Source of the DNA: a virus
DNA: 64,000 bases
IMG/VR virus record: IMGVR_UViG_3300006735_000001
Location: 49,578-113,577 of that record
Strand: one strand, 5' to 3'
In this document: piece by piece, positions 4,786 through 55,376 of the stretch
Layout: the number at the start of each line of letters is the position of its first letter
Numbering within the stretch: position 1 is the stretch's first letter
Made by a program: the position numbers and the translations under genes
Notes under the pieces: generated by a model
Databases searched by the model: none
Told to the model about the DNA's origin: nothing
The model's input: only the letters and a program-made list of their open reading frames with translations

Positions 4786-5256
4786 TTAATTTTTGTTGTT
4801 ACTTATTGTTTTAAATTTTTCTGCCCCTCTAGAACCAAAATATGCTACATAGACAGTTATTAAAAGTGACTTGAGTAAATCTACCCAGCCACCGTCAATA
4901 CTAAAGTCTATATCAAAACCATCTAACAATATAAATATAACTAATGAAACAGTCAAAAATATTAACGTTAATGGTCTTGTATTTTTAGATAAGTATGAGT
5001 CAGACTTCATATCTGCCTGCCATCTCTTACTTACTTCTTGCATCTCAATCATGTCTTGTTCAAGAAGCTTCAATGCTTTTTCTTTGTCTTCTGGTGGCAA
5101 TACAATATCAGGCTCCTTTTGTATAAGACCTTTAACAACACCCAATAGACCTGCATCAGGCAATGCATCACCAACTAAACCAACAATACTTGGAACTTTC
5201 TCTGTTAGGAATTTTCCAACCTTAGTTTCACTAAATCTTTTCTTTGGCTTACTCAT
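4786..5256 (-). CDS. holin (GTA 3TM-holin-like)
   Basis: RW.ADM.SDS.LSKNTRP, two TM helices, YFGSRG.EK. Confidence 0.75.
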   Translation of the reverse strand: MSKPKKRFSETKVGKFLTEKVPSIVGLVGDALPDAGLLGVVKGLIQKEPDIVLPPEDKEKALKLLEQDMIEMQEVSKRWQADMKSDSYLSKNTRPLTLIFLTVSLVIFILLDGFDIDFSIDGGWVDLLKSLLITVYVAYFGSRGAEKFKTISNNKN

Positions 5257-6767: not shown

Positions 6768-6787
6768 CTATATAAATAATATACAAA
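6768..6787 (-). promoter_or_regulatory. putative phage late promoter, copy 1
   Basis: TTTGTATATTATTTATATAG; matches four other intergenic copies. Confidence 0.6.
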
Positions 6788-6956: not shown

Positions 6957-7937
6957 ATGCAACAAAACATATTTAATTCTAGGGTAAATATCCTACCTTA
7001 TGAATATCCACAATTATTAAAATACAAAGACGCAATTAGACATTCTTACTGGATTGATACTGAGTTCAACTTTACAGAAGACATCCAAGATTTTAAAGTC
7101 AATATATCAAGTAATGAAAAAGATGTAATTAAAAAAACCATGCTTGCTATTGCGCAAATAGAGGTTAATGTAAAAACTTTTTGGGGAGACTTATATAAAC
7201 GCATGCCTATTACAGAGATAGGAGATGTAGGCTTTACTTTTGCTGAGTCAGAAGTTAGACATAAAGATGCTTATGCAAGGTTGCTTAGGATATTAGGATT
7301 AGAGAAAGAATTTCAATCAGTAGTTGAAGTTCCTGCAATAGAAGGTAGACTTAAGTACTTAAAGAAATACCTGGACGGTACACGCTCTAGAGATAATAAG
7401 ATGTACACCAAGTCTGTATTACTGTTTTCACTATTTATAGAGCACGTAAGCCTGTTTAGTCAATTCTTAATTATGATGAGCTTTAACAAAGAAAAGAATG
7501 TACTTAAAGGTATATCTAATGTTGTTGAGGCTACTAGTAAAGAAGAGGAGATACATGGTAACTTTGGTGCTGAGATTATTAATATAATCAAAAGAGAAAA
7601 TCCAGAATGGTTTGATCAAGAGTTTGAAGAATTAATTGATTCAGCTTGTAGAAAAGCTTATACAGCTGAGTGTGGAATACTTGATTGGATTTTTGAAAAA
7701 GGGGAACTTAGTTTCCTGCCACAGAATACAATACAACATTTTATAAAAAACAGATTTAATAACTCTTTAGATAAAATAGGTATGAAGCCCATCTTTGAAG
7801 TAGACCAAGAACTATTAAAGTCAGTAGAATGGTTTGATATAGAAATTACTGGTACTAAAGAAGGAGATTTCTTTTACAAGAAGAGTATTGACTATAATAA
7901 GAAAAGCAAGAGCATCACTGAAGATGATCTATTTTAA
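6957..7937 (+). CDS. nrdB: ribonucleotide reductase beta subunit, class Id (NrdBi)-like
   Basis: AQIEVNVK, ESEVRHKDAY, FIEHVSLFSQF, EEEIHG ligand motifs; C-terminal DFF..K..DY.K..KSIT.DDLF. Confidence 0.95.
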   Translation: MQQNIFNSRVNILPYEYPQLLKYKDAIRHSYWIDTEFNFTEDIQDFKVNISSNEKDVIKKTMLAIAQIEVNVKTFWGDLYKRMPITEIGDVGFTFAESEVRHKDAYARLLRILGLEKEFQSVVEVPAIEGRLKYLKKYLDGTRSRDNKMYTKSVLLFSLFIEHVSLFSQFLIMMSFNKEKNVLKGISNVVEATSKEEEIHGNFGAEIINIIKRENPEWFDQEFEELIDSACRKAYTAECGILDWIFEKGELSFLPQNTIQHFIKNRFNNSLDKIGMKPIFEVDQELLKSVEWFDIEITGTKEGDFFYKKSIDYNKKSKSITEDDLF

Positions 7938-7948
7938 ATAATAATATA

Positions 7949-8089
7949 ATGATAACAGAGCAAACTAATGGTAACACTCAAGTAAACACAGAGAGAGGAA
8001 ACTTCAATCAAAGAGTTTCTAAATTTAAGATGTTGGGTAAATCCAAGAAAGTCCAATGGGACGGTAAGAGAAGAAACAGAACAATTTAA
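7949..8089 (+). CDS. small basic ORF, 46 aa, between nrdB and nrdA
   Basis: MITEQTNGNTQVNTERGNFNQRVSKFKMLGKSKKVQWDGKRRNRTI fills the intergenic gap. Confidence 0.5.
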   Translation: MITEQTNGNTQVNTERGNFNQRVSKFKMLGKSKKVQWDGKRRNRTI

Positions 8090-8098
8090 ATAAAACCA

Positions 8099-9724
8099 AT
8101 GGAATATAATAAATACTACTGGCTTAATGAAGACAGCCGCACATTTTTATCAAGAGGATATATAACAGAAGAACCAGAACAAAGAATAAAAGACATAGCA
8201 AATACAGCAGAGAAATATCTACACATGCCCGGTTTTGCTGAGAAGTTTGAAAAATACATGTCTAAAGGATTCTATAGTCTATCAACACCAGTATGGATTA
8301 ATTTTGGAAAACAAAAAGGACTGCCTATAAGTTGTTATGGATCTAACATAGATGACAATCTAGATAGTATACTCAATGCAGGCCGTGAAATAGGTATGAT
8401 GTCTAAATATGGCGGAGGTACAAGTTGTTATCTTGGTAATATAAGACCTAGAGGATCGGTTATATCAACAGGAGGACTAGCAGATGGTCCTGTGCACTAT
8501 GCTAGAATATACGATACTGTGGTAGATGTATGTAAACAGTCTGAAGCAAGACGTGGTGCTTGTGCTGCTTATCTACCAATAGAGCATACAGACATTGAAG
8601 AGTTCCTAGATATTGGAACTGAGGGAAACTTAATACAAAATTTACAGTATGGTGTTACTGTAAGTAGTAGTTGGTTAGAACAAATGCGTGCTGGTGATAA
8701 AGCTAAACGTAAAATGTGGGCTAAAGTAATTCAAAGAAGGAGTGAGTTTGGTTATCCTTATATAATGTTTACGGACAACTCAAATAACAATAGCCCATAT
8801 AAAGAAATAGGAATGAAGATCACTGCATCTAATTTATGTTCTGAGATTCAGTTGCCTACTGATACATATAACTCATTTGTATGTTGTTTAGGTTCTATAA
8901 ACTTATTGCACTGGGATGAAATTATTAAAACAGACGCTATAGAAACATATGTGTTCTTTTTAAATGCTGTTATGGATGAATTCATTAAAAAGGCTGAAGT
9001 AAAAGCTGGCCTTAAAAGAGCATATAACTTTGCTAGCAAACATAGAGCTATTGGTTTAGGAGTATTGGGATACCATAGTTTATTTCAATCAAAACTAATA
9101 GAGTTTGAGTCACTAGCAGCTAAACAATTAAACAATCATATATTTAAACATTTAAAAGAAACGTCAGATGAAGCATCAAGATGGTTATATCAACACAGAG
9201 GATACAGATCCTTACGTGAAGGATATGCAAACACAACTCTTATGGCTATTGCTCCTACTAAATCAAGTTCATTTATCCACGGTGCTGTATCTATGGGTAT
9301 TGAGCCAATAAAATCTAATTACTTTATTAAGGACCTTGCTAAGTCTAAGACTATATACAAAAATCCATTTCTTGTAGAAGAATTAAATAAGTATGGATTA
9401 AACACAAAGAAGACCTGGGCAAGTATACTTAAGAAAGATGGATCCGTACAACACTTGGACTTTCCAACTAAAGCTGTATTCAAATCGTTTGTTGAGATAA
9501 CACCTAAAGAGTTAGTTTTGCAAGCTGCACAAAGACAGAAGTATATTGATCAATCACAATCTTTAAATCTTATGATACATCCATCTGTATCTGCTAAAGA
9601 TATAAATGCATTATATTTATATGCACATGATGAGGGCGTGAAAACTTTATACTATCAGTTTAGTCAAAGCTCTGCTCAAGACTTTGCTAGAAATATATTA
9701 GAGTGTTCTAGCTGTGAAGGTTAG
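8099..9724 (+). CDS. nrdA: ribonucleotide reductase alpha subunit, no ATP cone
   Basis: STPVW.NFG, ISCY, SNLCSEI, AIAPT.SSS, KTLYY, C-terminal CSSCEG. Confidence 0.96.
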   Translation: MEYNKYYWLNEDSRTFLSRGYITEEPEQRIKDIANTAEKYLHMPGFAEKFEKYMSKGFYSLSTPVWINFGKQKGLPISCYGSNIDDNLDSILNAGREIGMMSKYGGGTSCYLGNIRPRGSVISTGGLADGPVHYARIYDTVVDVCKQSEARRGACAAYLPIEHTDIEEFLDIGTEGNLIQNLQYGVTVSSSWLEQMRAGDKAKRKMWAKVIQRRSEFGYPYIMFTDNSNNNSPYKEIGMKITASNLCSEIQLPTDTYNSFVCCLGSINLLHWDEIIKTDAIETYVFFLNAVMDEFIKKAEVKAGLKRAYNFASKHRAIGLGVLGYHSLFQSKLIEFESLAAKQLNNHIFKHLKETSDEASRWLYQHRGYRSLREGYANTTLMAIAPTKSSSFIHGAVSMGIEPIKSNYFIKDLAKSKTIYKNPFLVEELNKYGLNTKKTWASILKKDGSVQHLDFPTKAVFKSFVEITPKELVLQAAQRQKYIDQSQSLNLMIHPSVSAKDINALYLYAHDEGVKTLYYQFSQSSAQDFARNILECSSCEG

Positions 9725-10227
9725 TCTCTTCTAGGAATTCCTTTACTTTTTACTACACTAGGAACCCGTGGTTTTGAGTTTGTATTATTTCGCTGTACAT
9801 TAATAGTAGATCTTGTATTATTTATATTGTTATTCCAACTTTGTATATTTATATTTGATCTACTGTTGACAGGCGGGACTACAATATTATTACTAGTTCT
9901 TGGGCCATTTATTCTAACTCTTGGTTTCTCAACCTTATCCGGCTTAATATATAGATCTCTAAAATACCATGTCTGTGGTCTATATATTTGATACCCAAAG
10001 TTATAGGGCTGGTTCCAATAGTAGTTATTCCAATTATTGAATCTATAGTTATCAAATACATTTACATAATTATACTTCTGGAATTCTTTTATAGGTATAG
10101 CAACTGTATCGCCTGCAGATGTTATAGTTAAGACTTTAGTAATTTTTAATTTAGGTGTAGTCTCTAAGTTATAAACTCCACAACTCAAAATACTATGCAA
10201 GCATAATAGTAATATTAATTTTTTCAT
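9721..10227 (-). CDS. predicted lipoprotein with N/P-rich disordered tail
   Basis: MKKLILLLCLHSILS-C lipobox. Confidence 0.65.
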   Translation of the reverse strand: MKKLILLLCLHSILSCGVYNLETTPKLKITKVLTITSAGDTVAIPIKEFQKYNYVNVFDNYRFNNWNNYYWNQPYNFGYQIYRPQTWYFRDLYIKPDKVEKPRVRINGPRTSNNIVVPPVNSRSNINIQSWNNNINNTRSTINVQRNNTNSKPRVPSVVKSKGIPRRD

Positions 10228-10628
10228 AAGCCTCGTTTATTGGTGTTAAGTGTTTTTTTCTTACCCCCGTCATAGACATATGCATGCCCTTCTTCTATTA
10301 AAGTTTTACAGACATCAATCTGCAAGCCTTGTTCATTCTTTATAAATACTTCTGCAAGAACCCTGCCGTACTTTCCAGTACCGTATGAGCGTATTCGGAA
10401 GAAACTCTTATCACACGTCTGTTCTGTCAGCATTTCTTTAGTTCGTGCCTTAGCCGCAAGTCCTTTTTCTTTCTCTTCTAAATCCTTCGTTCTGCACTCC
10501 CAAGTATCTAAACCGTAAAATCTAATTCTCTTTTTGACCCAGGTATCAAAACCTAAATCAATCATTGCGTCCACAGTATCTCCGTCAACTACTCGTAATA
10601 GTCTAGCTTTATATATATATTTTTCCAT
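10224..10628 (-). CDS. thermonuclease (SNase-like) family protein
   Basis: RVVDGDT, RIRFYGLDT.E, GKYGRVLA, L...GHA..Y. Confidence 0.88.
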   Translation of the reverse strand: MEKYIYKARLLRVVDGDTVDAMIDLGFDTWVKKRIRFYGLDTWECRTKDLEEKEKGLAAKARTKEMLTEQTCDKSFFRIRSYGTGKYGRVLAEVFIKNEQGLQIDVCKTLIEEGHAYVYDGGKKKTLNTNKRGL

Positions 10629-10632
10629 AATA

Positions 10633-11031
10633 TTAAAATTGACTTGCCTCAGATAAGTCGTTTATATCAGACTGTAACTTATCTAGATCTACAGGACACT
10701 CAAGATCTAATCCGGCTTTATATGTAAATTCTTTGAAACCCTCTTTAAATATTATAAGTGTGGGGGCCATGCGTATTCTATATTTTTTCTTTGAATCTGG
10801 TGAGTCAGCTATATTACATCTATAGTATTTAACTCCTGTAAGTTTTTCCCAGTCTTGAAAAGCATTGTCTTTATTAAAGTCTGCATAAAACTCAATTACA
10901 ACTATCTCATAATCTTCTTCAAAAGCATTGTTACCTGAAATGGCACTATCAAACTCTTTATCTGTTACCCAGTCTTGGGCCACTACTTGTGTCCCTACTA
11001 GCAGTAATAATAATGTTAGTAAGTACCTCAT
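10633..11031 (-). CDS. secreted thioredoxin-fold protein lacking CxxC
   Basis: Signal peptide ending VVA-QD; VVIEFYADFN in place of F.A.WCxxC; cis-Pro motif YRIRMAPTLIIFKEG. Confidence 0.65.
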   Translation of the reverse strand: MRYLLTLLLLLVGTQVVAQDWVTDKEFDSAISGNNAFEEDYEIVVIEFYADFNKDNAFQDWEKLTGVKYYRCNIADSPDSKKKYRIRMAPTLIIFKEGFKEFTYKAGLDLECPVDLDKLQSDINDLSEASQF

Positions 11032-11034
11032 AGC

Positions 11035-11325
11035 TTATTTTTTGGTTAGATCATAGATTCTCTCTTCCATCTTCTCAAACTTTTCTAGCAGCATCTCTAC
11101 ATCTTCTTGAGTTTCCATTATAGTCTGTCTGACAAGTTCATCTTTAAGATCATACTCAACTCTATTTATTGGTGGTTCAGGCATTTCCATTGCATGAGCT
11201 ATATCAGCTTGAAGTGTAAACCACATTGTTGCTAATGTAATTGTAAACCCTACAATCATACCTATTGTTTTTAAATCTAAAGTTACTTTAGTTTCTTCTC
11301 CTATCTGTGGTGCCTGTTGTGCCAT
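11035..11325 (-). CDS. single-pass membrane protein with C-terminal coiled coil
   Basis: TM IGMIVGFTITLATMWFTL; acidic heptad-like tail. Confidence 0.7.
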   Translation of the reverse strand: MAQQAPQIGEETKVTLDLKTIGMIVGFTITLATMWFTLQADIAHAMEMPEPPINRVEYDLKDELVRQTIMETQEDVEMLLEKFEKMEERIYDLTKK

Positions 11326-11331
11326 TATTTA

Positions 11332-12567
11332 TTATTTAAATGAAAAGTTTAAACCTATACTACTTTGGTATAACTCACTATCCCAGAATTTACCATATTC
11401 TCCTTCTATAAAGACACCAAAGTTTTTACTTAATTTCCATCCTAGATTGATACCTAGATTGTAATCTTCCCATTGTTCATGCTGTGAGTCTTCTATTAGT
11501 CCGCCTTTACCCCAGTTGTTTCTATTTAAATAACTAAAGTCCTCATCCCCAGTAATATATGTGTGATTGGGTAATATATAATTAGCATAAGCATGTAACC
11601 AAAATTTACTCTTATAATGATAGAAGTCAAAACCTACTATAGGTGCTATCTCTCCAAATTCACTAATAAGGTCCCATTGTTCATTATTATATCTATTAAT
11701 AAGATCTCTAAATACTGAATTTCTAAAATCTAAATCTGAGTATGCCACTATATTTCCGTCTGCATCTTTCCAAATCCAGTCTTGTCTTTCTTCACCTGTG
11801 GTCACATCCGTGTAAGTTGTATAATGATCTGTGTATCCATATTCAAAACCTAAAGAATACCATGGATTAATAGGGTACTCAACAACTTCACCTTCAGGTG
11901 TTGTAAATGTTTCTGTTTCATTCAACCATATTTCAATGGGGTTATATCCGTAAGCACGCTCATGAGTACGGTAGATAGCACCAGCTGAAATACTAAACTT
12001 TTTTCCAATAGGCAAGCGTAGTCTGGCCTCAGCAGACTTATAGTTTAGGTTAATACTTCCTACTTCTCTTGATTCAGCTTTAATTATATGATATTTACCT
12101 GTATGCTTAACAAATATTCTATGATTATTGAATTCTTCTCCACGGAGTCTTTCTTTTTCTATGTGAAACTGATACTCTAATCCTGCTAGAGCAGAGGTTG
12201 GTGCAGTAAATGCCAGTTGTTGTTCTGTACCATCATACCAATTTCTTGGTTTTCTTTCATAGCTAAATCTGGCCAGCTTTCTGATTCCAAATCCTATTCT
12301 ATAATCAAAGTCATAGTACTCTGTTACATCTACTACACGGGGTATACCATAAAGATCTCCTTCATCAGGTCTCTCTACAAAAAAGTCTTGTCTGCTTGTC
12401 TGATAGGAATTACGTGCATCACCTGCTGCATATACAGTTCCATACTGTAAAAAGTCTTGGTATAATGCCTTGAAGAACTTACCTTTTTCTTTTACTTCTT
12501 GTGAGTGAGAAGCATTAGGTAAAAACAAAAGTAGTATAAAAACCAACAGACTTAAATAGTTTTTCAT
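11332..12567 (-). CDS. predicted outer-membrane beta-barrel protein
   Basis: Sec signal peptide; alternating aromatic amphipathic strands; C-terminal YQSSIGLNFSFK beta-signal-like end. Confidence 0.65.
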   Translation of the reverse strand: MKNYLSLLVFILLLFLPNASHSQEVKEKGKFFKALYQDFLQYGTVYAAGDARNSYQTSRQDFFVERPDEGDLYGIPRVVDVTEYYDFDYRIGFGIRKLARFSYERKPRNWYDGTEQQLAFTAPTSALAGLEYQFHIEKERLRGEEFNNHRIFVKHTGKYHIIKAESREVGSINLNYKSAEARLRLPIGKKFSISAGAIYRTHERAYGYNPIEIWLNETETFTTPEGEVVEYPINPWYSLGFEYGYTDHYTTYTDVTTGEERQDWIWKDADGNIVAYSDLDFRNSVFRDLINRYNNEQWDLISEFGEIAPIVGFDFYHYKSKFWLHAYANYILPNHTYITGDEDFSYLNRNNWGKGGLIEDSQHEQWEDYNLGINLGWKLSKNFGVFIEGEYGKFWDSELYQSSIGLNFSFK

Positions 12568-12603: not shown

Positions 12604-12623
12604 CTATAAATATAATATACAGA
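12604..12623 (-). promoter_or_regulatory. putative phage late promoter, copy 2
   Basis: TCTGTATATTATATTTATAG. Confidence 0.55.
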
Positions 12624-12664: not shown

Positions 12665-15600
12665 TTATTTAATAAAGAAATCTTCCATAGTGGAGTAACT
12701 ACGCCATTTATTAAACGTATGTAATATTGGTAATGCATCTCCCCAGTTTTTCCATAATTTTAATTTACCTTTTCTTTTTCCTTGTTGATAGTATACATCT
12801 TTGTTAGCTTTAACATCTAAGTCACTTTGTACCATATAGTAAAAAGGTGTTTCTAAAGTCATCCATAGTGCCTCTGATAATTCTCCCATTGTTCTTGTTG
12901 AAGCAATAGGTGATTTAACCATTTGCATTTGTTGAGTACCACCAGCTATAGGAAGGAACATTACTAATTCAAATAAAGTTCTATCTGCTTGATATTTTAC
13001 AACATTTTTCAAACGTTTAACTGTTTCACTATCATCATCATCACCAGATAAAATAGAGCTAAAGATTATTGAAGTTATTAATACACTCATCATAATACCT
13101 ATCTCACCCATAGTTCTATAAAAACCTTGAAGTTTATTCATAGCTCTTTGGTCTTTGTTACCACCCTCTCCAGTATACCCATAGTCTGCTAAAAAACCAT
13201 CTTTATAGTTAGTTCTGATTTCTCCTTTTTTAACCTGCTCAAATACATAACTTAAAAACTTCATAAAGGATACATATCTACCTTCCATAAATCCTAAGTT
13301 TTCATCAAAGTATTCTGTTTGATATCTTGCTCTAATTGCAGGAGCAACCCACTTATGAAATTGTGCAGCCAATTTACCAACAGTAATAGATTGCATAACC
13401 ATTCTATCTTCTTTAGCATAGTTACCATGAATCTGTTTATTGACTTCTCTTATTTCATTTCTAATATCATATCTTATTTTATTATACCATTTTTCAAAAG
13501 AAACATTACCTTCAGGATTAAATGTATCTGACTTACCATTTATTCTAATAATAGTATCAAATCCAGGTCTTAATTCATTTTTATGTGTTTCTGGATTATA
13601 ATCAAAGGCATCATAAAATGAAATTTGTTCCTCAGTCTTACTATTTTTTACTTGCGTATCAATCAAAATAGCCATACCATTTTTTGTTTGTACATTATAT
13701 TCTGCCGCATCCTGTAGTATATAACCCCACTCAGCTGCACGTGCAAACCAACTCTTATTATTTGATGTTGACTCTGTCTGTTCACGCAATTGAGACATGG
13801 GGTCCATCATTCTAAAAGAATCTACAAAAGCTTCATATTTACTATTAGGCTTAGTAGAATCATATGAGCTAACATTTGCTCCTGGTATTAAGCCTACAGT
13901 AATTAAGTTTCCAAAATCTTTAGCACCTGTATGAGAAGTTCTATAAATTAAATCAGGAATTGCTCTTTTGTTAAATATCATTTCAGCTCTAACGTAAGCT
14001 GATCTGCTATAGAATCTACCCCCTAATGCTTCAATAGCATTATTTATTCTACCAATAACATAGTTATTAAAGTTACCAAATGGATTAAATGCTACATATG
14101 CTAATGAAGATATTTGTATAAGTCCATCTGCAATTTTATCCCAAGCACCCTTACTTACATTTTCGTTATCATAGTAAACCATGCTCATAAACTTTTTAGC
14201 ACGTCTGACTATGTTTGCTTCTACTTGTGTTTCAGATTGTTTCTTACCAATTTTTTTAAATACTCCATTAATTACCTTACCTAAGTCTAAAGAAGGATCA
14301 GAATCCCCATATTCTCTTTGTCCAATCACCTGCAGATAGGCTCTTAACGTATCTTCTATTTCACCCATAACAGAATAATTTTCTGCCATTGCTGTAAAAG
14401 CTAAAATACTTTCTCCTAAATCTGTATTTATTTCACCAACAGTTGGAGTTGCTTCTAGTTGTTGGACCTTACCTCTTAGTGCATACATTTTTTCTTTATA
14501 CTCATCTTTTTTAATATTCCCTTTCTTACGTTCTTCTTTTAAATCAGATATTTGTTTTTCTAATTCTACTATTGCCTCTGTATCTTTCGGACTACCCACA
14601 TAATAAATAGGTAATGAAGAAACAATATTTCCTAATTCATCTGTAACAATTGTCTTTTCACTATAAGTTCCTGTAAATGCACCCCAAGCTTCTTTACTAA
14701 TAATTTTGCTAAAGACTTTATTTACAAAAGTAGGTTTCTTAGTCATGTCTTTAATAAACTTATCCTTCTGTAGTGGTACCTTATTTATCATCATTGTTCT
14801 TATACCTGGGTCTAGTTTGGATAATAACTCATCTTGATATAAGTCCAGAACAATATTTTCATAAAATTCTTTTTGTGCAACACCTAATGCATCTGTAGGA
14901 TTCATTATTTCTATATATTGCTTACTCATCATATTAGTGCCATCTGCTGCTACATCTCTAACCTCTATAAACTCTGGCTTAACAAAAGGTCTGCTAGGCT
15001 TAACATTTTCAACAACCACACCATTAAATTTACCATCAACTTTTATTGCCTTTGTATAAGGATTTGGAGTTTGATAATATTTATTTTCATATACTGCAAA
15101 CTCTCCAGTACCCACATACTTATTTCTAACCAACCAATATCCAGGGGATCCTTCATTTCCCGGATTCCATACTTCATACTTATCTCTAGCATTTTTAAAC
15201 TCTTGTGTATATTGATGATAATTACCTGCTACAGGCTGACCAGTTTCTGGATCTTTTTGTTCAGCTCTTAAAAATAATCCAAAGTCTTCTTTAGCTTGAG
15301 CAAGCCTAATGTTGTTTTTTATATCTTCTTCAGATGCTACATCTAAATCACTTACAGGTGCATAAACATATTTTGTACCTGTGTTATCAGATAAAGGTGC
15401 ATAAAATTGTGCTTTAAGTATATCATACTGTGCACCAATTCTTTGAACAATATCATTTCTAATACCACCTTGATCATCTTGTGCAAAGGCAAACTTAAAT
15501 GCTTCTTTTCCTTCAAGTCCTGATAGTTGTAATACTGGGTTGGCAAATCTAGCAATTCTATCTTTTTGTAATTGTACTTGATCTAATAATTCTTGATTTT

Positions 15601-18574
15601 TAGATTTAAACATTTTTGCCATAAGCGCTAACATTACATCTGGAGATGTATCCATATCTCTTGTTTGTAACTCAGTGCCGTTTATATCTTTAGTATATCT
15701 AATAAGCTCTTCTAAATTTTCTTCAGTAAATAAACTATTGATACCACCATAATCTCTATTAGATCTTGCCTTAATATCTGCCTTTACAAAATCATCTACA
15801 GCAGTTCTAATAATAGGAGGTTGATCTCCAACACCTTCCTTTAACTCATTCAATAAACTTGTTAATCTAAAATATAAAGACTTCTGTACAGCATTAAGAT
15901 CTTTGTTATCTTTCAATTGATGTAGTCCTCTGAAAGTCGCTGCAAATCTATTATAATTTAAAACATATGTTATGTAGTTTCCATCATCCATATTACTAGG
16001 ATCTAAAACATACTCTTTAAATGCTTTAATTTCATCTATAGAGTCTTTTAAAAATGATGTGTATGCTGAACTTGCTTTTATACCACCTTCTTGTAATGCA
16101 TAACCTATGTAAGATATATGCATTGCAATTCTATCTCTTTGCTCAAGTTTAGTTCTATTTCTAAAGATATTACTTCTTATAGCTTTTTCAGCTTCTTGTA
16201 CTGATATAAGACCAATTCTAAAATTTTCTAGTGCAGCAAGTATAGAATTATATTCTGGATATACTTGTTTATTTATAGTACCTTCTTCATCACTAAAGTC
16301 TTCATCTTTTCCACGGTAAGGTTTGTTAGGATCCCCTTGTGTTTGTCTATCAAGTTTATCTGCTTCAAAATTATCTAATGTTGCAGGTATAATTTTATTT
16401 ATTTGAGGTTTGAATTGACCTGGTGGATGTTTTGTCACACCTTCAAACTTAATAGTACCAAAAGTTTTATCCTTTACAATTTTTATACCTTTTTCATTTC
16501 TTAATGTCTCACCGTCTTTAGTTTCATACACATCTTTTATTCCTGTACTAAAATGTAAAGTAACTACGTCAGATCCGTCCTCACTAAAATCAAATTCATA
16601 TCCCATATTCTCCAACATCCTTCTATAGAGATTTACCTGAAACATTTGTTGAGTCTTTAAGGTCATACTATCCACACCTGCATTAAATACTAAACTACCA
16701 CTTTGTTCAGGTTTGAATGGATATGATGTATCGCTATATGGATTTATAACTGGATCCCCTACCTTCTGACCTTTTCTCTTCTCATATATACTATTCTTAG
16801 ATGTTTTAAGATCTAGTATTTTAATCTTACCTTCTTCTGTAATAATTATTACATCAGCTGTACCTGCAATTTCAGTTGCCTTATCAAAAAGAGTAACTTG
16901 TGTTAACATGATTGAGCCAGCAGGCCTAAATGTATCTAATGCAGTTTCCAAAGCAATTGATATTCTAGTTACATCTTCAACTTGCATTTGATCTAAAGAA
17001 GCTTTTAGTACTCTAAGTTGAAATGATTTTGTTCCTGCAATTGATGAATCCTCTGGAGACTGTGCAATTTCTTTTTCTAACTTATCTATTTTTAATTTAG
17101 TATCCTTAGTAATGTTCTCTAACATTTGTTCTGGAGTAAATAAAATAGAATTTGATTGCATATTAGTTACAACATAATCTAATAATGCATCTACTTGATT
17201 ACCTACTTCTATTTCTAAAGTAGCATCATAATCTATCTGTAAATCACCTTTGATAACATTAGTTACTGATCTGTATTCTTTACCTGTGTTTAAGTTATAA
17301 TATTTATGGTCTGGTTCGTTTAATGCTACTATATCAGTAGGGGTATCCACATTTGCATTTACAGCTAATGTAGATACTTCTTCATCTAATTTAGTAGATA
17401 CCATAGTCATTCTATCTACTAGAGTTCTCTGCAGTGAGTTACCTTTACTTTTAGCAGCATCAACTTGTTTTTGTTTTTCATTTGATAAACTAAATCTCAC
17501 TCTCCCATTAGTAGGTACATCAAGTTTGAACTCTATTCCTTCTGTATTTAGAAGTTTAGCAATATCTGTAAGAGTTGTATTAGGATTTATTGCTGTAACT
17601 GGTATAGCTCTACCGGTAAGATATTCATTTAAATTCTTTATAACTCCACTGAACCATTCTAAAAAATCTTTTATCTTATCTAAAAAAGATTTGGTTGGTT
17701 TAGTTTCATATTCTCTTTTAAAGTGTCTAGTTAATGCTTGCGTTACTATTTCTATGTTTCTATCTGTCTCATTAAAACCCCTATCATTATTATAAGTATC
17801 TTTTATTTCTTGCACCATTGATGGAAATGTTTTGCTAGCCTCAGCTAATAAACCATCATATAGTTCTTTATTATCTAATCTAACAGACTCTATAAAGGGG
17901 TGCATCATTTCTTCTATAGCAGTTTCATCTGTAACTCTTCCTTGAATTAAATAAGCTGTGCCATCTACATAAAATGAGTTTGCGTCTTGTTTTATTGAGT
18001 TAGGAAATGATTTTAGTAGAACATTTGCTTGACCGGGTGTAATCATTTTTACTTTTATACCAGGGAATAACCTCATAAGATGAGTTACAACTGCTCTTGA
18101 TCTAGGAGTATCCCACCCCCTTGATTTATCTATCATATCTTTAGGAGAAAACATATCGTCATTTACAGTAACTCTAAATGATTCTTTTGTTCTTGTAAGG
18201 CTAATTGTATCTTGAGGAATATTATTTATATCTAAATATCTTTTTAACCTTTTAACGTTAGATTGCAAAAACATTTCATCATATTCTCTTGTAGCTGGAT
18301 TTGAATTGTTTACATAGAAAGAATCTTTAAAGTTATGACCTATCCTTTCTCTGCGTAAATTAGATAATAAAGACTCACCAAATAGTTTTTGCTTTAAAGA
18401 GAATGATTTTTTCTTTTGATTTAAATAAGTTTCAACTTCAAAAGGTGTTGGAAAAACATTTGTATTATTTACATCTTGCCAACCATTAATAATATTATTA
18501 GTGTCTATTTCACTTTTATATATATTATTAATTATCTGATAACCCGGATCATTTATATTAAAACACTTAGCCAT
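12665..18574 (-). CDS. giant virion cargo/ejection protein with degenerate zincin and PD-(D/E)xK nuclease domain
   Basis: TAIEEMMHPF; IAGTADVIII..GKIKILDLKTS..Q...Y; C-terminal TM-like helix; adjacent to vRNAP. Confidence 0.7.
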   Translation of the reverse strand: MAKCFNINDPGYQIINNIYKSEIDTNNIINGWQDVNNTNVFPTPFEVETYLNQKKKSFSLKQKLFGESLLSNLRRERIGHNFKDSFYVNNSNPATREYDEMFLQSNVKRLKRYLDINNIPQDTISLTRTKESFRVTVNDDMFSPKDMIDKSRGWDTPRSRAVVTHLMRLFPGIKVKMITPGQANVLLKSFPNSIKQDANSFYVDGTAYLIQGRVTDETAIEEMMHPFIESVRLDNKELYDGLLAEASKTFPSMVQEIKDTYNNDRGFNETDRNIEIVTQALTRHFKREYETKPTKSFLDKIKDFLEWFSGVIKNLNEYLTGRAIPVTAINPNTTLTDIAKLLNTEGIEFKLDVPTNGRVRFSLSNEKQKQVDAAKSKGNSLQRTLVDRMTMVSTKLDEEVSTLAVNANVDTPTDIVALNEPDHKYYNLNTGKEYRSVTNVIKGDLQIDYDATLEIEVGNQVDALLDYVVTNMQSNSILFTPEQMLENITKDTKLKIDKLEKEIAQSPEDSSIAGTKSFQLRVLKASLDQMQVEDVTRISIALETALDTFRPAGSIMLTQVTLFDKATEIAGTADVIIITEEGKIKILDLKTSKNSIYEKRKGQKVGDPVINPYSDTSYPFKPEQSGSLVFNAGVDSMTLKTQQMFQVNLYRRMLENMGYEFDFSEDGSDVVTLHFSTGIKDVYETKDGETLRNEKGIKIVKDKTFGTIKFEGVTKHPPGQFKPQINKIIPATLDNFEADKLDRQTQGDPNKPYRGKDEDFSDEEGTINKQVYPEYNSILAALENFRIGLISVQEAEKAIRSNIFRNRTKLEQRDRIAMHISYIGYALQEGGIKASSAYTSFLKDSIDEIKAFKEYVLDPSNMDDGNYITYVLNYNRFAATFRGLHQLKDNKDLNAVQKSLYFRLTSLLNELKEGVGDQPPIIRTAVDDFVKADIKARSNRDYGGINSLFTEENLEELIRYTKDINGTELQTRDMDTSPDVMLALMAKMFKSKNQELLDQVQLQKDRIARFANPVLQLSGLEGKEAFKFAFAQDDQGGIRNDIVQRIGAQYDILKAQFYAPLSDNTGTKYVYAPVSDLDVASEEDIKNNIRLAQAKEDFGLFLRAEQKDPETGQPVAGNYHQYTQEFKNARDKYEVWNPGNEGSPGYWLVRNKYVGTGEFAVYENKYYQTPNPYTKAIKVDGKFNGVVVENVKPSRPFVKPEFIEVRDVAADGTNMMSKQYIEIMNPTDALGVAQKEFYENIVLDLYQDELLSKLDPGIRTMMINKVPLQKDKFIKDMTKKPTFVNKVFSKIISKEAWGAFTGTYSEKTIVTDELGNIVSSLPIYYVGSPKDTEAIVELEKQISDLKEERKKGNIKKDEYKEKMYALRGKVQQLEATPTVGEINTDLGESILAFTAMAENYSVMGEIEDTLRAYLQVIGQREYGDSDPSLDLGKVINGVFKKIGKKQSETQVEANIVRRAKKFMSMVYYDNENVSKGAWDKIADGLIQISSLAYVAFNPFGNFNNYVIGRINNAIEALGGRFYSRSAYVRAEMIFNKRAIPDLIYRTSHTGAKDFGNLITVGLIPGANVSSYDSTKPNSKYEAFVDSFRMMDPMSQLREQTESTSNNKSWFARAAEWGYILQDAAEYNVQTKNGMAILIDTQVKNSKTEEQISFYDAFDYNPETHKNELRPGFDTIIRINGKSDTFNPEGNVSFEKWYNKIRYDIRNEIREVNKQIHGNYAKEDRMVMQSITVGKLAAQFHKWVAPAIRARYQTEYFDENLGFMEGRYVSFMKFLSYVFEQVKKGEIRTNYKDGFLADYGYTGEGGNKDQRAMNKLQGFYRTMGEIGIMMSVLITSIIFSSILSGDDDDSETVKRLKNVVKYQADRTLFELVMFLPIAGGTQQMQMVKSPIASTRTMGELSEALWMTLETPFYYMVQSDLDVKANKDVYYQQGKRKGKLKLWKNWGDALPILHTFNKWRSYSTMEDFFIK

Positions 18575-21500: not shown

Positions 21501-24500
21501 TAAAAATCTTTTATATGTGCAAATGTTTTATCTCCATCATGATCTGAACCTGCAATTTCTATTAACTCTTGAGCATACATTCCAACTGAACCCATAGCTG
21601 TAGGCATAAAGTCTACTAATAAAGATGGTGTAGATGAATGAAAATCATCTGTAGGAATACGTACTGCAAATTGTCTAGCTATAACATTTGGAATAGGAGC
21701 ATTAGTATTTTCTATAAGATCCCTTACTGAAGAATGATGAGCTGGCATTTGCATTTCCATAGCTCTTTCACCCGTGTAAGAATTAGGATTTTTAGGGTTA
21801 CTATATACAGGCACCACTCTTAATCTATCAAGTACTATATAACCTTTAGCTGGTATGTTACCAGGTGTTAAATCTTGTAAGTCTTTCTCTACAGTCAAAC
21901 CTAATCTATCAAAAACTTTATCTCTAACAATTTCTGATCTAGTAGGTATTGTTTCTCCATTAACTATTTCTACATCATATACTCTTCTATATTTTTTTAC
22001 CCCAAATGGTGAAACTAAAGTCAGCTTAACCATAGGTACTTTTTGAGAAAATACACCTTTAGCAAAATAATTTAAAAACAATTGTTCAAACTTAGGTGCA
22101 GTAATTGGGTTATTTAAATTATAATTTTGTTTACCATCAACACTTGAAAAGAATTCTAATAAGTTAGTACTTGTCTTACCTGCTTTTAAACTCTTCTCAG
22201 CAAATTTTAAAAATGCTGCTAGCTTAGGAGTAATGTCTGTGTTATTAGATATATTAAAATCATTTACAGCACTTTCAAATTCATATATTAAATTTCTTTT
22301 ATTATTAAAACTTAGTTTAAACTTTTTGGTCTTTACTTCATTGTATGCTGTTATGATTTGTTTTAAGTCTAAAGCATCACCGTTTAAATCTCTAAGTCCT
22401 GGTACTTTAGTCTTATAAAACTGAACTGGAATATTAGTAATTATTTCAGCTATCTGTGTTGGATCAGGACCTTCTAATTGATTTGAAGGTGTAATCTGCT
22501 GTAACCTCATATGTTTAGCAGATAAAGTTGAGTGAGGAAGAACTTCCAATGCTCCTATATTATCATTTATATCACTCAGTGGTACAACTCTCATTTTTTC
22601 TGCCTTACTAGCACTCAATGGTCCAGCAACTGTAATAGTATCTTTACTAGCATCAATCTTTTCCATTGCTACTCTTAAGTTATGAAGCGTCAACATACCA
22701 GGTTTAGCCTCCCAAACTTGAGTTACTGGATTTAAATTAGAAGTGTATTCTTTAAATAGTGTAGTTATTGTAAATTTTAAATACTTTTGCCCATCAAAAT
22801 ATGCATACTTTTTAGAGTTAACCATATCCTTGTCCTGTACTAGACCTATTGGGGTTTCTTCATTACCAAAATATACAGAAGACTGATATGATTCTGACAG
22901 CCCATCTTCCATAGCATCAAGTAATTGAGCTTGTCCTGTACTTAAAGAATCAGTACCAAATTTTAAATGTCTAAATCCTTTAACAGTAGTATATCCTTGT
23001 GCATCAGCAATATCAATATTATTTTCTATTGGCTCTTCAAATAATATATAACTAATATCATCTGTTGTATGTAATATTCCTTTCTTAGTATCAATTACTT
23101 CTGAGTATGCTGGTGTACCCGCATTGTTATTTCCTTTAGCTCTTTTAGTTATATCTGCAGAGCTTTTAAATAACCTTGCTTGATCACCATGTTGTGCTTC
23201 ATTAAACGCAGCTGCATTTAACTTTTGATTAAAAAATATTTGTCTTAAGTTATATCTAGCATTTGTTGGTATTAGATTTAATGATTCTGAAGATTCATTT
23301 ACATTGTTTCTACTTACACCTTCAGCAACCACTAGTCCATCTTTTACCTTTTTGGAAATTTCATCATATATATTTTCATCAATAAGATATTGAACATAAT
23401 CACTATATTCATTATTCAATTGAGTTCTTATATCTTCTCTGATTTGACTTAATGTATAAGGTGTAAATTTAATAGCATCATCAAAACTAATAGTATTACG
23501 GGCTTGGCCTTGATCATAAGCTACTTTAGATAATTCATTTTTAAATTCTTGACTAAGTAAAGTGGTATTATTAAAGAAGCTAAAGCCCCTCCCCCCTACA
23601 TCATTATAACCTAACACTGTTTCTGTAGCTGTATCAATATTTGATTCTCTATTTATTCTAGTAAACTCATTTTTAATACCATCTAAGAATAAATCTAATG
23701 TCTCATCAGTTATGATTGCATTAGATCCTTCTACCGTTTTTATAACAGGTAATCCAATTAATTCAGAAGTATTAGATGCCTCCATTACTTTAGGAAATAT
23801 AGGAGCAATAGCAGACTCATTACCTTGACTGTCTATTACAGTATCTACTCTACCACTTTTAGTATTAAAGAATGCCGTATATAAATTAATTTGAGTTAAT
23901 GAAAATTCTTTAGGTGAAAAGTTTCCATATGTTTGTGTTCTAAAGTAATCTGTATTATCAATAGATACTCCATCTTCTACATTACTTTCTGATAGTGCTC
24001 CAGAAGCAACTTTTGAACCTTCCATTCTAAGCATTCTTATTTGTCTATCCTGACTCATTTTCTTAAATGCCTCGCTATTAAGTAAAAAATTCTGTTCCTT
24101 ATATGGATCTGCTAGAAGATTATTATAAAAGTCTATATTATTTAGATTATTGACAAACAATAAATTAAATGTAGGTTTCTGATGAGCATAAACAAGATCA
24201 CCATTAGAATTTCTATGTATGGTTGCTCCAACTGTTTCATCAAAAGGTGCATTTGCTATAGATAGTTCTCTAAGTCTACCTAGTATACCACCTTTCTCAT
24301 CAAAAATATCTTGGTTAGACTGCAGTTGCTCACTCAATAAAGACATTGTACTAAAGTCACTCCCTGTACCACTATCTTGAATTACTTTAGCATCTGAATA
24401 TAGTTTCTTTAAAGACTTTTGTTTTTTTGTTTTTCCATTTCTATTTTGCAACAGACTTACTTTGATAAACAAACTGCTTAATTTAATTCCAACATTATCA

Positions 24501-27500
24501 TACAAATCTTGTGAGTATGCTTTAGACATTTTATCTAATGCCTTATCTGTCATTTCATTAGAACCTTTTAGAGCTTTGTCAAAATCTTTTATTTGATTTA
24601 TAACATTTGTGGTTTTATTAGAGTCTGCTCTTAATTTTCTTTTAGCAACATAATAAGCTTGTTGCCACCTGGTAAGTTGTGAATTAATATCATCTTTTTG
24701 AGATGCTGTATAAATTCTTACATCTCCAGCTAATGATCTTTCTACAAATAAATAGTCTAGCCTTACATTAGTAAAGCCATTTATAAATGATTGAAGTAAG
24801 CTAGAGTTTTGTATTTCTGCCGGAAAGGATTCATCTGTTAATAATGATTCAGAACTATAACCAACATCATGTAAAAGCTTTCTAACTATAGCACCTCCCT
24901 GTACGTTATCTTCTCCAAAGAAATACATACTCTTTAAAAAGTCAAGTGGATTAGTAATATTAGATGTAGATTTTAATATTGAATTAAATGCATCTACAAA
25001 ATCTACAGGAACAATTATTCTTTCACCTTTAGTTAAATACTCATTTCCAAAGAAATCTTTTTCAGATACTGAAGTTAAAGCTATATATTTTCTTACATCA
25101 GAAGGAATAGCTTTTAAACCACCTATCAGTGATGCATCTAGATCATATTGTGATACAGTTCTAACTCCAACAGAATCTTCAACATTATCTATATTCTCTT
25201 CTTGAATGACAGATTTATCTGTTATCATTTCAAGTAAATTATCCGCTTGCTCTATAATTAAAGTAGAATAGTTTAAAAATGCAGACTCAATTTGTTTTAA
25301 CTTTTCCTTTTGTTCATCTGTCTTTAAATCATTGACTTCATTATTAGGACTATATAACCATTGATAATCATCTACTACTTCATCAAATATATCTTTAGGG
25401 TTATATGGTAACTCAGCTTTTGCTGATCTTGCCAGGTAGCTTGCCGCTATACCTCTGACTATCATATCAGCTATATTTCCATCTAAGTAATCAAAACCTT
25501 CTGTATCTTTAACAACTATCTTTTTAAAAGGCACCAATGCATTAGCAATTATAGGCCCGTCATTTAATACTGACTCAGTAAATTCATTACTCACTACTGA
25601 TGCATTTTTATATTTACCTGCATCAATATCTTCAAAAGTTCTTTGTAATTGTGAAGTAGTAAACCTATCTATAAAAGCTTTTATAAATTCAATTATTCTA
25701 TTAAATAAAGATTTTACTTCTGTATTTGTATTAGTATTCCTTGGATTTATTTTGAACTTATCAAACTCATCAGACATGTACTCTTCATAGTATAATTTTT
25801 CTAACTGCTTTCTACTCATATCACTATAAGTATTTGCTGAGTTCTTAAATTTTTGTAGTTCTTTCTCAAAGCTTTTACCTTCAGCTCTAAGTTTTGCTCT
25901 TACTTCTTTTCTGGCTACAGATTGTAATCTCTTTTGTTGTTCTGGTGTAAGTAATAATCTATATACAGCATGAAAAGCTTCATGATATTTAAATGGATTT
26001 TGTGCTCCTGTATAAATTGTACCTTTTACATTTAATCCACCGGCTAAATCATTTAAATACATTTGAAAAGCACCTACCCTAACTCCTCCAGCTTTCATAT
26101 TATCACCTAATACTGCTATGTCTTCTATGCTAATGAAGTCTGGTAATATTCTTTCAGCCTCCATCATAAAATCATTAATATTAACTATATCAAGATCATC
26201 AAATACTGGAGTAAATACACCACTTAGAATTTTGTTAACTAACCCTTTATCTTGTCTATCTCTTTCTTTTAATAATTTCTGATACTCTTCATTTTTTTGT
26301 AAAGTTTTAAAATGATCTCTTGGTGCTACACCCTCTAACAAGGATACCTTTAACTCTTCAATTTGAATGTTGATATTATTTTGTTTAACAGGTAATCCTG
26401 GTTGCTTACCATCTCTAAACATTAGCCAGCTAGATTTATTATTTCCAACTTGTGGGATACTACCATCTAATCTATCTTGAATATAGTCAACTATAATACC
26501 CATTTTGTCCATAGAAAAATCATAGTCTTTGGTTATTCTTTTCAGAACCATTTCTCTACCTTTTTCTAGTGTTATCTTTCCGTTCTTTATGCCTTTATCT
26601 ATTGTCTTTATGTAACTCTCTATAGATTTATCTTCTACAGCTTTTTCATCAGAATTTAAATATATGATATCACCATTGCTGTCTTTCCCTTTAGTCTTAG
26701 TTCCAAGAGGTTGGGTACTATTACCTCTCCTTGCAGCACTTTTTGCTTCATATAACTGAGTAGTAAGGCTCTTAAATTTAGCTCTATTTTTATCAGAAAC
26801 CTCTCCTGTAACAGGATCTCTTAAAGCTCGAATCTGTTTCTCAACAGTAGATACAACATCATCAAACTTTTGATTTGGATTAGTAGAAGCTGTTGTAGGA
26901 TTAGGAGCAATAGCTACTTTCATATCAATAATCTCTGAATTAGTGTCGTATATACCTTGTTCTCTTAGAGAAAACTCTCCACCTCTTCTTTTGACTTCTG
27001 CTATTTGATCTAAGAATGCAACTGGTACAGGGACATTACCTTCAACCATATCAGTATATTCTGTCTCAGTTATATCTAGTACACTATTCTCTGCTTCATT
27101 ACTAGTTCGTGCTGGAGTTTGTAATACTGGTCCTATTGGTTTACCAGAATAAGGTTCAGTCATCTGAAAAGTCCCTGATGCATTTGCTGCATCTGGTACA
27201 CCTCTACCAGCATCTATCCCTGCTGAGTTAGCATTTAATCTTACCTTCTGTCCTTTAAATACATTTGTTGCAGTTTTTGTTGTAGTCTTATCTAATATCT
27301 CATCATATGTAGCATCTTCAGGAAATCCTTTACTAAACTTAGCAGGGGTAATCACCACACCAGTAGATTCTATTTCTTCATTTAATCTACTAATTAATGT
27401 AACAAGTTTTGCTTCTACAGAAATCTTAGGATCATTTACTTCATCTCTTGTTAATTTTGGTGTTTTTGTAGCTACATCTTTTTTATTATTTTTATCATAC

Positions 27501-41396: not shown

Positions 41397-41416
41397 TTAT
41401 ATTAATAATATACAAA
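41397..41416 (-). promoter_or_regulatory. putative phage late promoter, copy 3
   Basis: TTTGTATATTATTAATATAA. Confidence 0.6.
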
Positions 41417-54416: not shown

Positions 54417-55376
54417 TTAACAAGTGGGACATGTACTAGTTGATGTAGAATTACCTACAGCTGTGTTTTGAGCAGGAGAAATACTAGGCTGAGCAGGTGC
54501 ATAACTTAAAAACATATTATAAAAATTATGATATTGAGCTCTACGGTTCATTGTCCATACCTTTCTCATTTCTGCAAAGTTAGGAGTGTTCACAAATGTC
54601 AATGCATTATTTCTTGAAGCACGTAATCTTTGCTCTATTAATCCTAATTGATCACCAACTTTTTCACCTTGAAACATCATGTTTTCAAGTATACGTTGTT
54701 TAATAGCATACTCATAATACTCATTACAATATGGATGATCTAAAAGTAATAAATCTCCTTCTGCATTTTCCATAGCTCCTTGATAACTTAAATATACTTT
54801 ACCAGTAGTAAAGTTTGTTAAAAGAAAACCATCTTTAATTTCTGCTACATCTAAAGCTTGAGCACCTAAAGCAGGACAATAGCATACTTTATCATTAAGT
54901 CCAGTTATTCTTAATTGAGACCAATGATTGTATATTCTAAATTGTTCTGGACCTATTCTTTGAATAAGCTGATGTGAATTTTTATCATCACAAGTTTTAA
55001 TTACACATACATCTCTGCATTTAGAATCATCACATGGTCCTGATTCTCCTGGAGCTGGTACATAAGGTACATCATTAAAAGTTTCTACATGTGTACCTGA
55101 AGGTAGTGTAGAATTTATTTTATACTCGCCACATCTAAAACCATAATTAACATATTGAAAATCCATAGGTAATTGTGCTCTGCCATGCTCAACATCTATT
55201 ATTACTTCTTTAGTTCTATGTATTCTTAAACCTAAATCATAATTAACTCGTTGTGCCACTTTAATTAATTGTTGTGGCTCTATCATTCCTTCTAATGCAT
55301 AAGTAGAAAAATCAATAGAGACACTCTCCATTAATTGACTAAATGTTTTATATTTTTGTGAAACTCCATTTCCCAT
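54417..55376 (-). CDS. tail tubular/ring protein
   Basis: TNF..GKVYLSY....DHPY..YY..K pattern; position between ring and muzzle genes. Confidence 0.65.
   Translation of the reverse strand: MGNGVSQKYKTFSQLMESVSIDFSTYALEGMIEPQQLIKVAQRVNYDLGLRIHRTKEVIIDVEHGRAQLPMDFQYVNYGFRCGEYKINSTLPSGTHVETFNDVPYVPAPGESGPCDDSKCRDVCVIKTCDDKNSHQLIQRIGPEQFRIYNHWSQLRITGLNDKVCYCPALGAQALDVAEIKDGFLLTNFTTGKVYLSYQGAMENAEGDLLLLDHPYCNEYYEYAIKQRILENMMFQGEKVGDQLGLIEQRLRASRNNALTFVNTPNFAEMRKVWTMNRRAQYHNFYNMFLSYAPAQPSISPAQNTAVGNSTSTSTCPTC

Follow-up and report, generated by a model that had tools for sequence, protein, structure and literature searches.

Phages of diderm hosts normally keep spanins in their lysis cassette (PMC6139136). 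The two-component spanins of the lambda Rz/Rz1 type stand there beside the holin and the endolysin and comprise a small inner-membrane protein with a helical coiled-coil periplasmic domain and a second exported subunit, encoded by the gene immediately after it, with the partners in the inner and outer membranes (PMC6139136). Here, we describe a three-gene module that recalls spanins in outline and was found in the IMG/VR virus record IMGVR_UViG_3300006735_000001, a record of 113,577 bp that carries direct terminal repeats. We analyzed bases 49578-113577 of this record, a stretch of 64,000 nucleotides that we refer to as the window, and coordinates are those of the window unless they are given as genome coordinates. 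The module encodes a predicted outer-membrane beta-barrel (BB), a single-pass helical membrane protein (TM), and a secreted thioredoxin-fold protein (TRX). Based on its gene neighborhood, we propose, with a probability that we put at roughly 45%, that it is a lysis-cassette envelope module that fills the spanin role of outer-membrane disruption. We know of no experimental explanation of how phages of Bacteroidota, a group that includes crAss-like phages and the abundant phages of marine Flavobacteriia, break the outer membrane, and to our knowledge canonical spanin pairs are hard to find in these phages.

Other described systems resemble parts of the module. The T4 holin T and antiholin RI likewise pair a single-pass inner-membrane lysis protein that has a periplasmic domain with a small secreted periplasmic partner. 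The module differs from T and RI in that it shares no homology with them, its genes are adjacent and translationally coupled, its secreted partner has a thioredoxin fold, and it usually comes with an outer-membrane barrel. Exclusion by remodeling or blocking a receptor has precedents in lambda Lom and T5 Llp. Lom and the outer-membrane proteins of huge phages are, as is predicted for BB, phage-encoded and Sec-exported barrels of the type that the beta-barrel assembly machinery (BAM) inserts into the host outer membrane, and they are often encoded in late regions. BB differs from them in its strict association with lysis genes and with a pair of dedicated partners and in having no Pfam family; it probably has about 12 strands with large conserved loops, compared to 8 strands in Lom, and its carrier phages are 33 to 114 kb in size rather than the huge phages whose outer-membrane proteins are the subject of preprint 10.64898/2026.10.24.761521. 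According to the same preprint, phage-encoded outer-membrane barrels are widespread, an exclusion role has been proposed for them, and Lom is reported to block LamB. We found no description of the three-gene module in the literature that we searched, and no cultured phage or Pfam family covers it.

Results

Three genes of a five-gene set are conserved together

In the window, the module is part of a set of five minus-strand open reading frames (ORFs), which encode BB (411 amino acids [aa]; 12567..11332), TM (96 aa; 11325..11035), TRX (132 aa; 11031..10633), a staphylococcal nuclease (SNase)-family endonuclease (134 aa, PF00565; 10628..10224), and a lipoprotein that we call LipoA (168 aa; 10227..9721). 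The spacing between successive ORFs is 6, 3, and 4 nt, and the last pair overlaps by 4 nt. An earlier sequence-only reading of this DNA had described five tightly packed genes, four of them with export signals, and both statements are borne out: BB and TRX have type I signal peptides, TM has a hydrophobic segment, the 168-aa protein has a lipobox, and the nuclease has none of these. The same reading had placed all five products in one trans-envelope complex and expected the five genes to co-occur in other phages.

We collected related loci from IMG/VR by seeding with BB and, separately, with TM. The BB-seeded search returned 76 loci, and clustering of their ORFs (the window counted) placed BB in 75 loci, TM in 70, and TRX in 68, compared to 8 for the nuclease and 12 and 10 for two lipoprotein families. 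In the TM-seeded search, BB and TRX were both present in 57 of the 57 loci with enough flanking sequence. We then assembled from both searches a nonredundant set of 74 loci with at least 2.5 kb of flank. All three genes were present in every one of them (74/74), whereas the nuclease occurred in 8 (11%) and the lipoprotein families, LipoA and LipoB taken together, in 20 (27%; 17 of 68 in another tally). The conserved unit is therefore the trio of BB, TM, and TRX, with the nuclease and lipoprotein as passengers or optional add-ons. TM and TRX are immediate neighbors in 66 of 67 loci (median gap, 0 nt), so the gene that follows TM, where an o-spanin would stand, encodes a protein with a type I signal and no lipobox. 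Co-occurrence thus holds for the trio and fails for the nuclease and the lipoproteins. That all five products form one trans-envelope complex with an exported nuclease is an idea to which we give almost no credence: the genes are tightly packed in their own genome and the last two overlap, but the nuclease has no export signal, it and the lipoprotein are missing from most relatives, and the co-occurrence counts contradict the idea.

The trio is not confined to one kind of genome. Besides the 113.6-kb crAss-like genome analyzed here, it is present on complete records of 33, 63, and 64 kb; a search of these three records for crAss ring proteins gave no match, but it gave none even in the controls. 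The presence of the trio on several phage backbones fits a portable lysis module. The BB family has 2,469 relatives in a word-indexed collection of 5.8 billion proteins and 406 representative clusters at 50% identity, all of them metagenomic, and there are at least 547 TM relatives in IMG/VR. Among 50,697 GenBank phage records, there was no DNA or protein match to the region, BB, TM, or TRX. Two remote BB members (P0173 and P0155) were searched for in IMG/VR and were not found there. A further remote homolog, 26% identical to the BB of the window (profile E value, 3e-43), is encoded on a Tara contig (L087:2983-4194) without TM or TRX, and its neighbors look cellular (flavodoxin-, PspC-, and DUF2892-like genes, as identified by visual inspection of the sequences). 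A rare outer-membrane protein of the host may thus be the origin of the phage barrel. BB was found in 0 of 300 further genomes from the class of a Flavobacteriales metagenome-assembled genome (MAG).

The module usually lies near endolysin or holin-like genes in its relatives

The most common neighbor of the trio is a 153-aa M15 peptidase (PF08291, E = 1e-13; phrog_894 "endolysin," E = 1.6e-31). In other lineages, the same place is taken by a 140-aa Amidase_2 protein (E = 1.9e-17) or by a protein with PG_binding_1 and Amidase_2 domains; the latter stands beside the trio in the L086 lineage, where the identity of BB is only 33%. L086 is a phage-like contig from a Flavobacteriales MAG, and directly upstream of its barrel-TM-TRX-amidase cassette is the gene for a 994-aa secreted protein (L086:3024-6008) with a sorting domain of the type IX secretion system (T9SS) (Por_Secre_tail, E = 3e-13), which looks like phage-encoded T9SS cargo. 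In 42 loci, an endolysin gene lies no more than six genes from the trio, on the strand of the trio in every case, and in 19 loci the distance is at most one gene. Holin-type small membrane proteins also adjoin the trio, namely, c12 (phrog_3427, E = 3.6e-17), the two-segment protein c26, c8, and c28, and in relatives where c12 directly follows the endolysin next to the trio, the order is TM-TRX-BB-endolysin-c12. Overall, 56 of the 74 loci have an endolysin or holin-like gene no more than 2.5 kb away from the trio. In crAss-like phages, lysis genes have been reported in a late transcriptional unit (PMC10136315). The sequence-only reading had offered three roles for the operon: superinfection exclusion with DNA degradation, nucleotide or phosphate scavenging, and noncanonical outer-membrane lysis. 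With three kinds of endolysin and holin-like genes flanking the module in relatives, outer-membrane lysis is the best fit to the neighborhood among the three.

As an independent control, we used the M15 endolysin alone as the seed and labeled ORFs with hidden Markov models in the 37 loci that had flanks of 4 kb or more on both sides. TM-TRX-BB was present in 14 of these loci, TM-TRX without BB in 6, TM only in 2, and none of the three in 15. Two cassettes recurred, TM-TRX-M15-c12 (for example, in L216, L229, and L235) and TM-TRX-BB-M15-c12 (for example, in L180, L184, and L226). From these endolysin-seeded cassettes, we take TM-TRX to be the basic pair and BB and the lipoprotein to be additions targeted to the outer membrane. 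Once the unexported endolysin and the holin-like gene are subtracted from the four-gene cassette, two envelope proteins are left in the usual place of the spanins.

The same cassettes bear on the main rival to a spanin role, which is that the module controls the timing of lysis. TM would then be a single-pass holin or holin partner, TRX a periplasmic antiholin-like regulator that binds the periplasmic domain of TM in the manner of T4 T and RI, and BB an optional outer-membrane sensor or accessory. We consider this rather unlikely. It would account for TM-TRX standing right beside the endolysin even without an outer-membrane component and for TM being the only membrane protein universal to endolysin-adjacent cassettes, and the small TM, with its highly charged tail and single Gly/Thr-rich membrane segment (Kyte-Doolittle mean of ~1.65), is reminiscent of class III holins and signal-anchor-release (SAR) domains. 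However, many cassettes have separate holin-like genes (c12 [phrog_3427], c26, and c8), Pfam and PHROGs reveal no sequence similarity to T4 T, RI, or holin families, and a very large clade strictly retains BB, as one would not expect of a mere accessory.

BB is a predicted outer-membrane barrel

BB begins with a signal peptide (residues 1 to 22) whose n, h, and c regions end in A-S-H-S, with Gln23 at the +1 position. The type I signal peptides of both BB and TRX end in a small residue followed by Gln (Gln19 in TRX), which is the Bacteroidetes Q-rule (PMC5837995), and this rule is satisfied by 66 of 70 BB and 61 of 68 TRX family members. The C terminus of BB (S403-I-G405-L-N407-F408-S-F410-K) fits the BAM beta-signal; G405 and N407 are invariant, and one residue follows the last aromatic. 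As sequence features, the Q-rule counts and the beta-signal, together with the T9SS sorting domain neighboring the trio in L086, support real export and Bacteroidota hosts.

A first AlphaFold2 model of BB, built from 28 relatives, had a predicted local distance difference test score (pLDDT) of 66.7. A second, built from 45 more diverse relatives that were found by an exhaustive profile search, reached a pLDDT of 79.8 and a predicted template modeling score of 0.72. The top structural matches of both models were exclusively outer-membrane barrels, which upholds the earlier description of the 411-aa protein as a barrel. When the second model was compared to known structures with VIA-align, it matched the EstA autotransporter barrel (Z = 12.7), KdgM (12.1), NanC (11.8), NalP (11.0), Tsx (10.6), and LpxR (10.2). 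These 12-stranded barrels share the overall fold of BB (Z of 10 to 13 over 164 to 209 aligned residues), but identities of 7 to 13% and root mean square deviations of 4.5 to 6 Å leave no family-specific match, and unlike them BB has a loop region of ~100 residues (203 to 303) and, in the model, an N-terminal helix (residues 30 to 40). Hydrophobic and polar residues alternate along the strands. The hairpin at residues 246 to 267 is polar and the most variable part of the protein and is therefore probably surface exposed rather than membrane spanning, which leaves 12 strands; the strand number is thus probably about 12. The long loops at residues 203 to 245, 268 to 303, and 332 to 367 are conserved as strongly as the strands. 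A 31-residue periplasmic turn (residues 98 to 128) holds several invariant residues in a part of the model with low confidence. Altogether, BB is predicted to be a BAM-inserted outer-membrane barrel. It has no family match in Pfam or PHROGs, including when the 45 diverse members were scanned singly, and a protein-atlas look-up gave generic outer-membrane-protein neighbors only. Except within a tentative proposal made below, we set aside a barrel enzyme of the LpxR, PagL, or OMPLA kind, to which BB is similar only in its general fold. BB does have His, Asp, and Asn residues that are invariant, among them H202, H317, H325, H335, D314, and D368.

A barrel in the outer membrane might also serve superinfection exclusion or receptor masking, with BB, assisted by TM and TRX, remodeling or blocking an outer-membrane receptor, which would keep further phages or released progeny from adsorbing to infected cells or debris. 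Widespread phage barrels have such a proposed role (preprint 10.64898/2026.10.24.761521), the predicted surface hairpin at residues 246 to 267 is where BB varies the most, and rare cellular-looking BB homologs exist (L087), all of which would suit exclusion. Exclusion genes are usually sporadic accessories, yet the trio is intact on several phage backbones; moreover, the module lies in a late block beside endolysins, conservation in the long predicted outer loops equals that in the strands, and TM-TRX is found without BB. On balance, we find exclusion quite unlikely.

TRX has a thioredoxin fold without the redox site

TRX matches the Pfam thioredoxin family (PF00085, E = 6e-6; 26.7 bits against a cutoff of 23.5), and its family profile matches thioredoxins in the PDB with E values of 1e-9 to 4e-11. 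The fold is homologous to that of the TrxA family, and the cis-Pro loop (P90) and the flanking FWA...PT motifs are retained. In contrast to TrxA-type thioredoxins, TRX is secreted and has N-x-x-N instead of CxxC: the residues F52-N-K-D-N56 align with W-C-G-P-C. The pattern [FWY]-N-x-x-N is present in 40 of the 49 TRX family members found beside endolysins, and CxxC is present in 0 of the 68 TRX members of the trio. Because both active-site Cys are replaced by Asn, thiol-disulfide chemistry is impossible, and by its sequence TRX is a redox-dead thioredoxin fold. The sequence-only reading had called the protein Cys-less, which is right for the CxxC site and wrong for the protein as a whole, which has two nonconserved Cys (C72 and C112).

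TM resembles an inner-membrane spanin subunit in outline

TM has a conserved 19-residue N terminus, one Gly/Thr-rich hydrophobic segment (approximately residues 20 to 38), and an acidic, helical C-terminal domain of ~55 residues with V76, L79, F83, M86, I90, and L93 at the a and d positions of heptads. E57, K61, D62, R66, I69, D75, V76, and R89 are invariant in the family alignment, and the protein has no Cys. From these features, we infer an inner-membrane anchor with a short coiled coil that would reach into the periplasm, and by analogy TM resembles an i-spanin in outline. It has no family in Pfam and a single weak match in PHROGs (phrog_1009, E = 0.007), and a protein-atlas look-up gave only weak leads to domains of unknown function. 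Paralogs of TM (95 to 111 aa) with the same N-terminal motif and membrane segment and another tail adjoin TM or the endolysin (L006:8866-9201, L190:6456-6773, and L241:1895-2182), and in one protein (P0322) a TM paralog is fused to TM. Two TM-TRX fusions (P0323 and P0325) were rejected as evidence of contact, since they are singletons that keep the TRX signal peptide and are probably read-through or assembly artifacts. A complex prediction for BB, TM, and TRX scored 0.00, which speaks neither for nor against binding.

The nuclease and the lipoprotein are optional

The 134-aa nuclease matches PF00565 (E = 2e-7; 31.7 bits against a cutoff of 21) and phrog_452 "endonuclease" (E = 1e-38). The motifs D-G-D-T and R...D-T-x-E are kept, as judged by eye, and the enzyme is probably active. 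The sequence-only reading implied that it is exported, a claim that we drop because the sequence contains no signal peptide or membrane segment. Where the gene does occur, its position shifts within the late or lysis region, where it may follow either TRX or the endolysin. The gene is a passenger outside the conserved module, and its product is cytoplasmic.

LipoA has the lipobox I-L-S-C16, in which C16 is invariant in the alignment. A short conserved N-terminal segment is followed by an aromatic segment and a Pro/Asn/Ser-rich tail of low complexity, the mature protein has no Cys beyond the lipid-modified C16, and Pfam and PHROGs hold no match. In some barrel-less cassettes, LipoA comes directly after the endolysin, in the order TM-TRX-M15-LipoA (L241, L246, and L248). 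It is an optional outer-membrane add-on. The suggestion that TM and a lipoprotein act as i- and o-spanins does not hold as a general rule, as the lipoprotein gene is missing in about three-quarters of the relatives; we rejected the pairing of TM with the 168-aa lipoprotein as a general explanation only. Apart from the 168-aa gene, we found no embedded lipobox ORF between positions 9600 and 12700.

Genomic setting of the module

The carrier phage is a marine one, crAss-like (Crassvirales-like) and of the lytic type. Genes for the tail ring proteins CrAss_Ring_1 and CrAss_Ring_2 are located at 54417-56050, with Pfam E values of 1.4e-7 and 4.4e-18, both above the cutoffs. The minus strand holds nearly all genes from 63999 to 9721, including giants of 1,116 to 4,769 aa, and this run is the late block, with the five-gene set at its 3' end. 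One of the late proteins, of 2,185 aa (41447-48004), has an SLT match (E = 1e-8) and a YkuD-like match that is below the cutoff (E = 0.0014). Just upstream of the barrel gene is the gene for a 1,969-aa protein (12665-18574) with a weak PD-(D/E)XK or exonuclease-like region.

The 97-nt gap between the 1,969-aa gene and the barrel gene contains a promoter-like motif on the minus strand (12605..12622). The operon had been credited with its own promoter copy; the motif exists, but it is a copy of TTGTATATTATTNATATA with 3 mismatches, and at up to 3 mismatches 8 occurrences were found compared to 3.7 expected, which is not clearly above chance. Perfect copies of TTGTATATTATTNATATA number three (6769-6786, 41398-41415, and 60904-60921), and all are intergenic, on the minus strand, and upstream of late-strand genes. 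We regard TTGTATATTATTNATATA as a candidate phage late-promoter motif. A TATATTAT..TATA.ACC element upstream of the barrel gene is conserved in the closest clade only.

Directly after the five-gene set are the ribonucleotide reductase (RNR) genes nrdB and nrdA (6957-9724) on the plus strand, beyond which minus-strand genes resume, so that the RNR genes are an inverted plus-strand island within the late region. The stop codons of nrdA and the 168-aa lipoprotein gene overlap by 4 nt, and transcription there is convergent with no spacer. With the RNR genes on the opposite strand, the functional tie between them and the operon that had been suggested is not supported. A related idea is that BB is a Tsx-like nucleoside or phosphate channel for nucleotide supply, tied to the RNR genes and the nuclease. 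The fold of BB does resemble that of Tsx (Z = 10.6), and RNR genes adjoin the module in ~48 of 76 loci. However, BB matches Tsx no better than it does other barrels of 12 strands, the RNR genes vary in position or lie on the other strand, which looks like synteny at a late-block boundary, the nuclease is cytoplasmic and rare, and an uptake channel that is expressed late would come too late to feed replication. We regard a nutrient channel as highly improbable.

As for lysis genes in the same genome, c12, a 156-aa holin-like protein with hydrophobic segments at its C terminus (phrog_3427 "holin," E = 3.6e-17), is encoded on the minus strand at 4786..5256, in the same late-strand block but 5.4 kb downstream of the trio, past the inverted RNR island. 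We found no M15 endolysin in this genome; its endolysin is a 306-aa protein with PG_binding_1 and Amidase_2 domains (genome coordinates 21831-22751), which is encoded ~37 kb from the trio. Small envelope ORFs lie outside the window as well. At genome coordinates 27244-27728 on the plus strand, the ORF of a basic lipoprotein of 53 aa overlaps with the beginning of a gene for a 110-aa two-segment membrane protein, and at 23921-24100 on the minus strand, an ORF of 59 aa combines a lipobox with a hydrophobic segment at the C terminus. Such proteins could be candidates for exclusion or for a spanin-like function.

Discussion

We propose that BB, TM, and TRX act together at the outer membrane during lysis. 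What we observed are the folds, the export signals, the strict co-occurrence of the three genes, and their position next to genes for endolysins and holin-like proteins; contact among the three proteins, the topology of TM, the timing of expression, and the outer-membrane-disruption step are what we infer. As its position implies, the module would be expressed late, as the last part of the structural operon. TM-TRX would be the basic, translationally coupled pair, and BB, in some phages along with a Pro-rich lipoprotein such as LipoA, would be the outer-membrane component added to it. The module would act on the outer membrane in the slot of the spanins once the holin and endolysin have cleared the wall, with TRX taking the gene position of the outer-membrane subunit and BB serving as an integral outer-membrane anchor, pore, or destabilizer.

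The comparison to spanins has limits. As with spanins, the module is found in lysis cassettes, although this is true of the relatives and not of its own genome. The downstream partner in spanins is a Pro-rich lipoprotein, whereas in the module it is a soluble thioredoxin fold, and unlike spanins, the module has an integral beta-barrel as its outer-membrane component. It also lacks the periplasmic Cys that make intermolecular disulfides in spanins and has no sequence similarity to them. The putative periplasmic domain of TM is one helix of ~55 residues, compared to two coiled coils totaling ~130 residues in spanins, and conservation of the module is unusually high. Because it has no adjacent lipoprotein, no periplasmic Cys, and a very short periplasmic arm, we have not filed the module as a spanin.

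Several points weigh against a spanin-equivalent role. The functional evidence is all guilt by association, and accessory "moron" genes also gather beside lysis cassettes. The module is absent from 15 of the 37 endolysin-seeded loci, and in its own genome the lysis genes are scattered, with the endolysin ~37 kb and the holin-like gene 5.4 kb away, so that it is the relatives that carry the argument for lysis. Some cassettes (L216 and L235) have TM-TRX with no recognizable outer-membrane component, a pattern for which a spanin model has to account. The periplasmic part of TM is not only short but free of Cys, and the sequences are far more conserved than those of usual spanins. Finally, a rigid barrel is an unlikely partner in membrane fusion, and a pore-forming or destabilizing mechanism is therefore as likely as fusion.

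A more specific proposal, which we make tentatively and hold to be doubtful as it stands, is that the trio may be a third kind of outer-membrane lysis device, used by phages of Bacteroidota, in which a coiled-coil TM is coupled to a redox-dead TRX that stands in for the lipoprotein o-spanin, and the pair docks on a BAM-inserted BB. The barrel, not fusion, would then open or destabilize the outer membrane, either by forming a gated pore or by acting on lipids as an enzyme.

The module is very common, with at least 547 TM relatives in IMG/VR and 2,469 BB relatives, and its gene set is simple and testable. If it turned out to be an exclusion or timing system instead, it would still be a widespread three-compartment envelope system without a described counterpart. 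If it is the outer-membrane lysis step, it would explain a recurring block of "hypothetical" genes in marine viromes, provide the first function in phage biology for a secreted thioredoxin fold without redox Cys, and constitute a new mechanistic class alongside spanins and disruptins.

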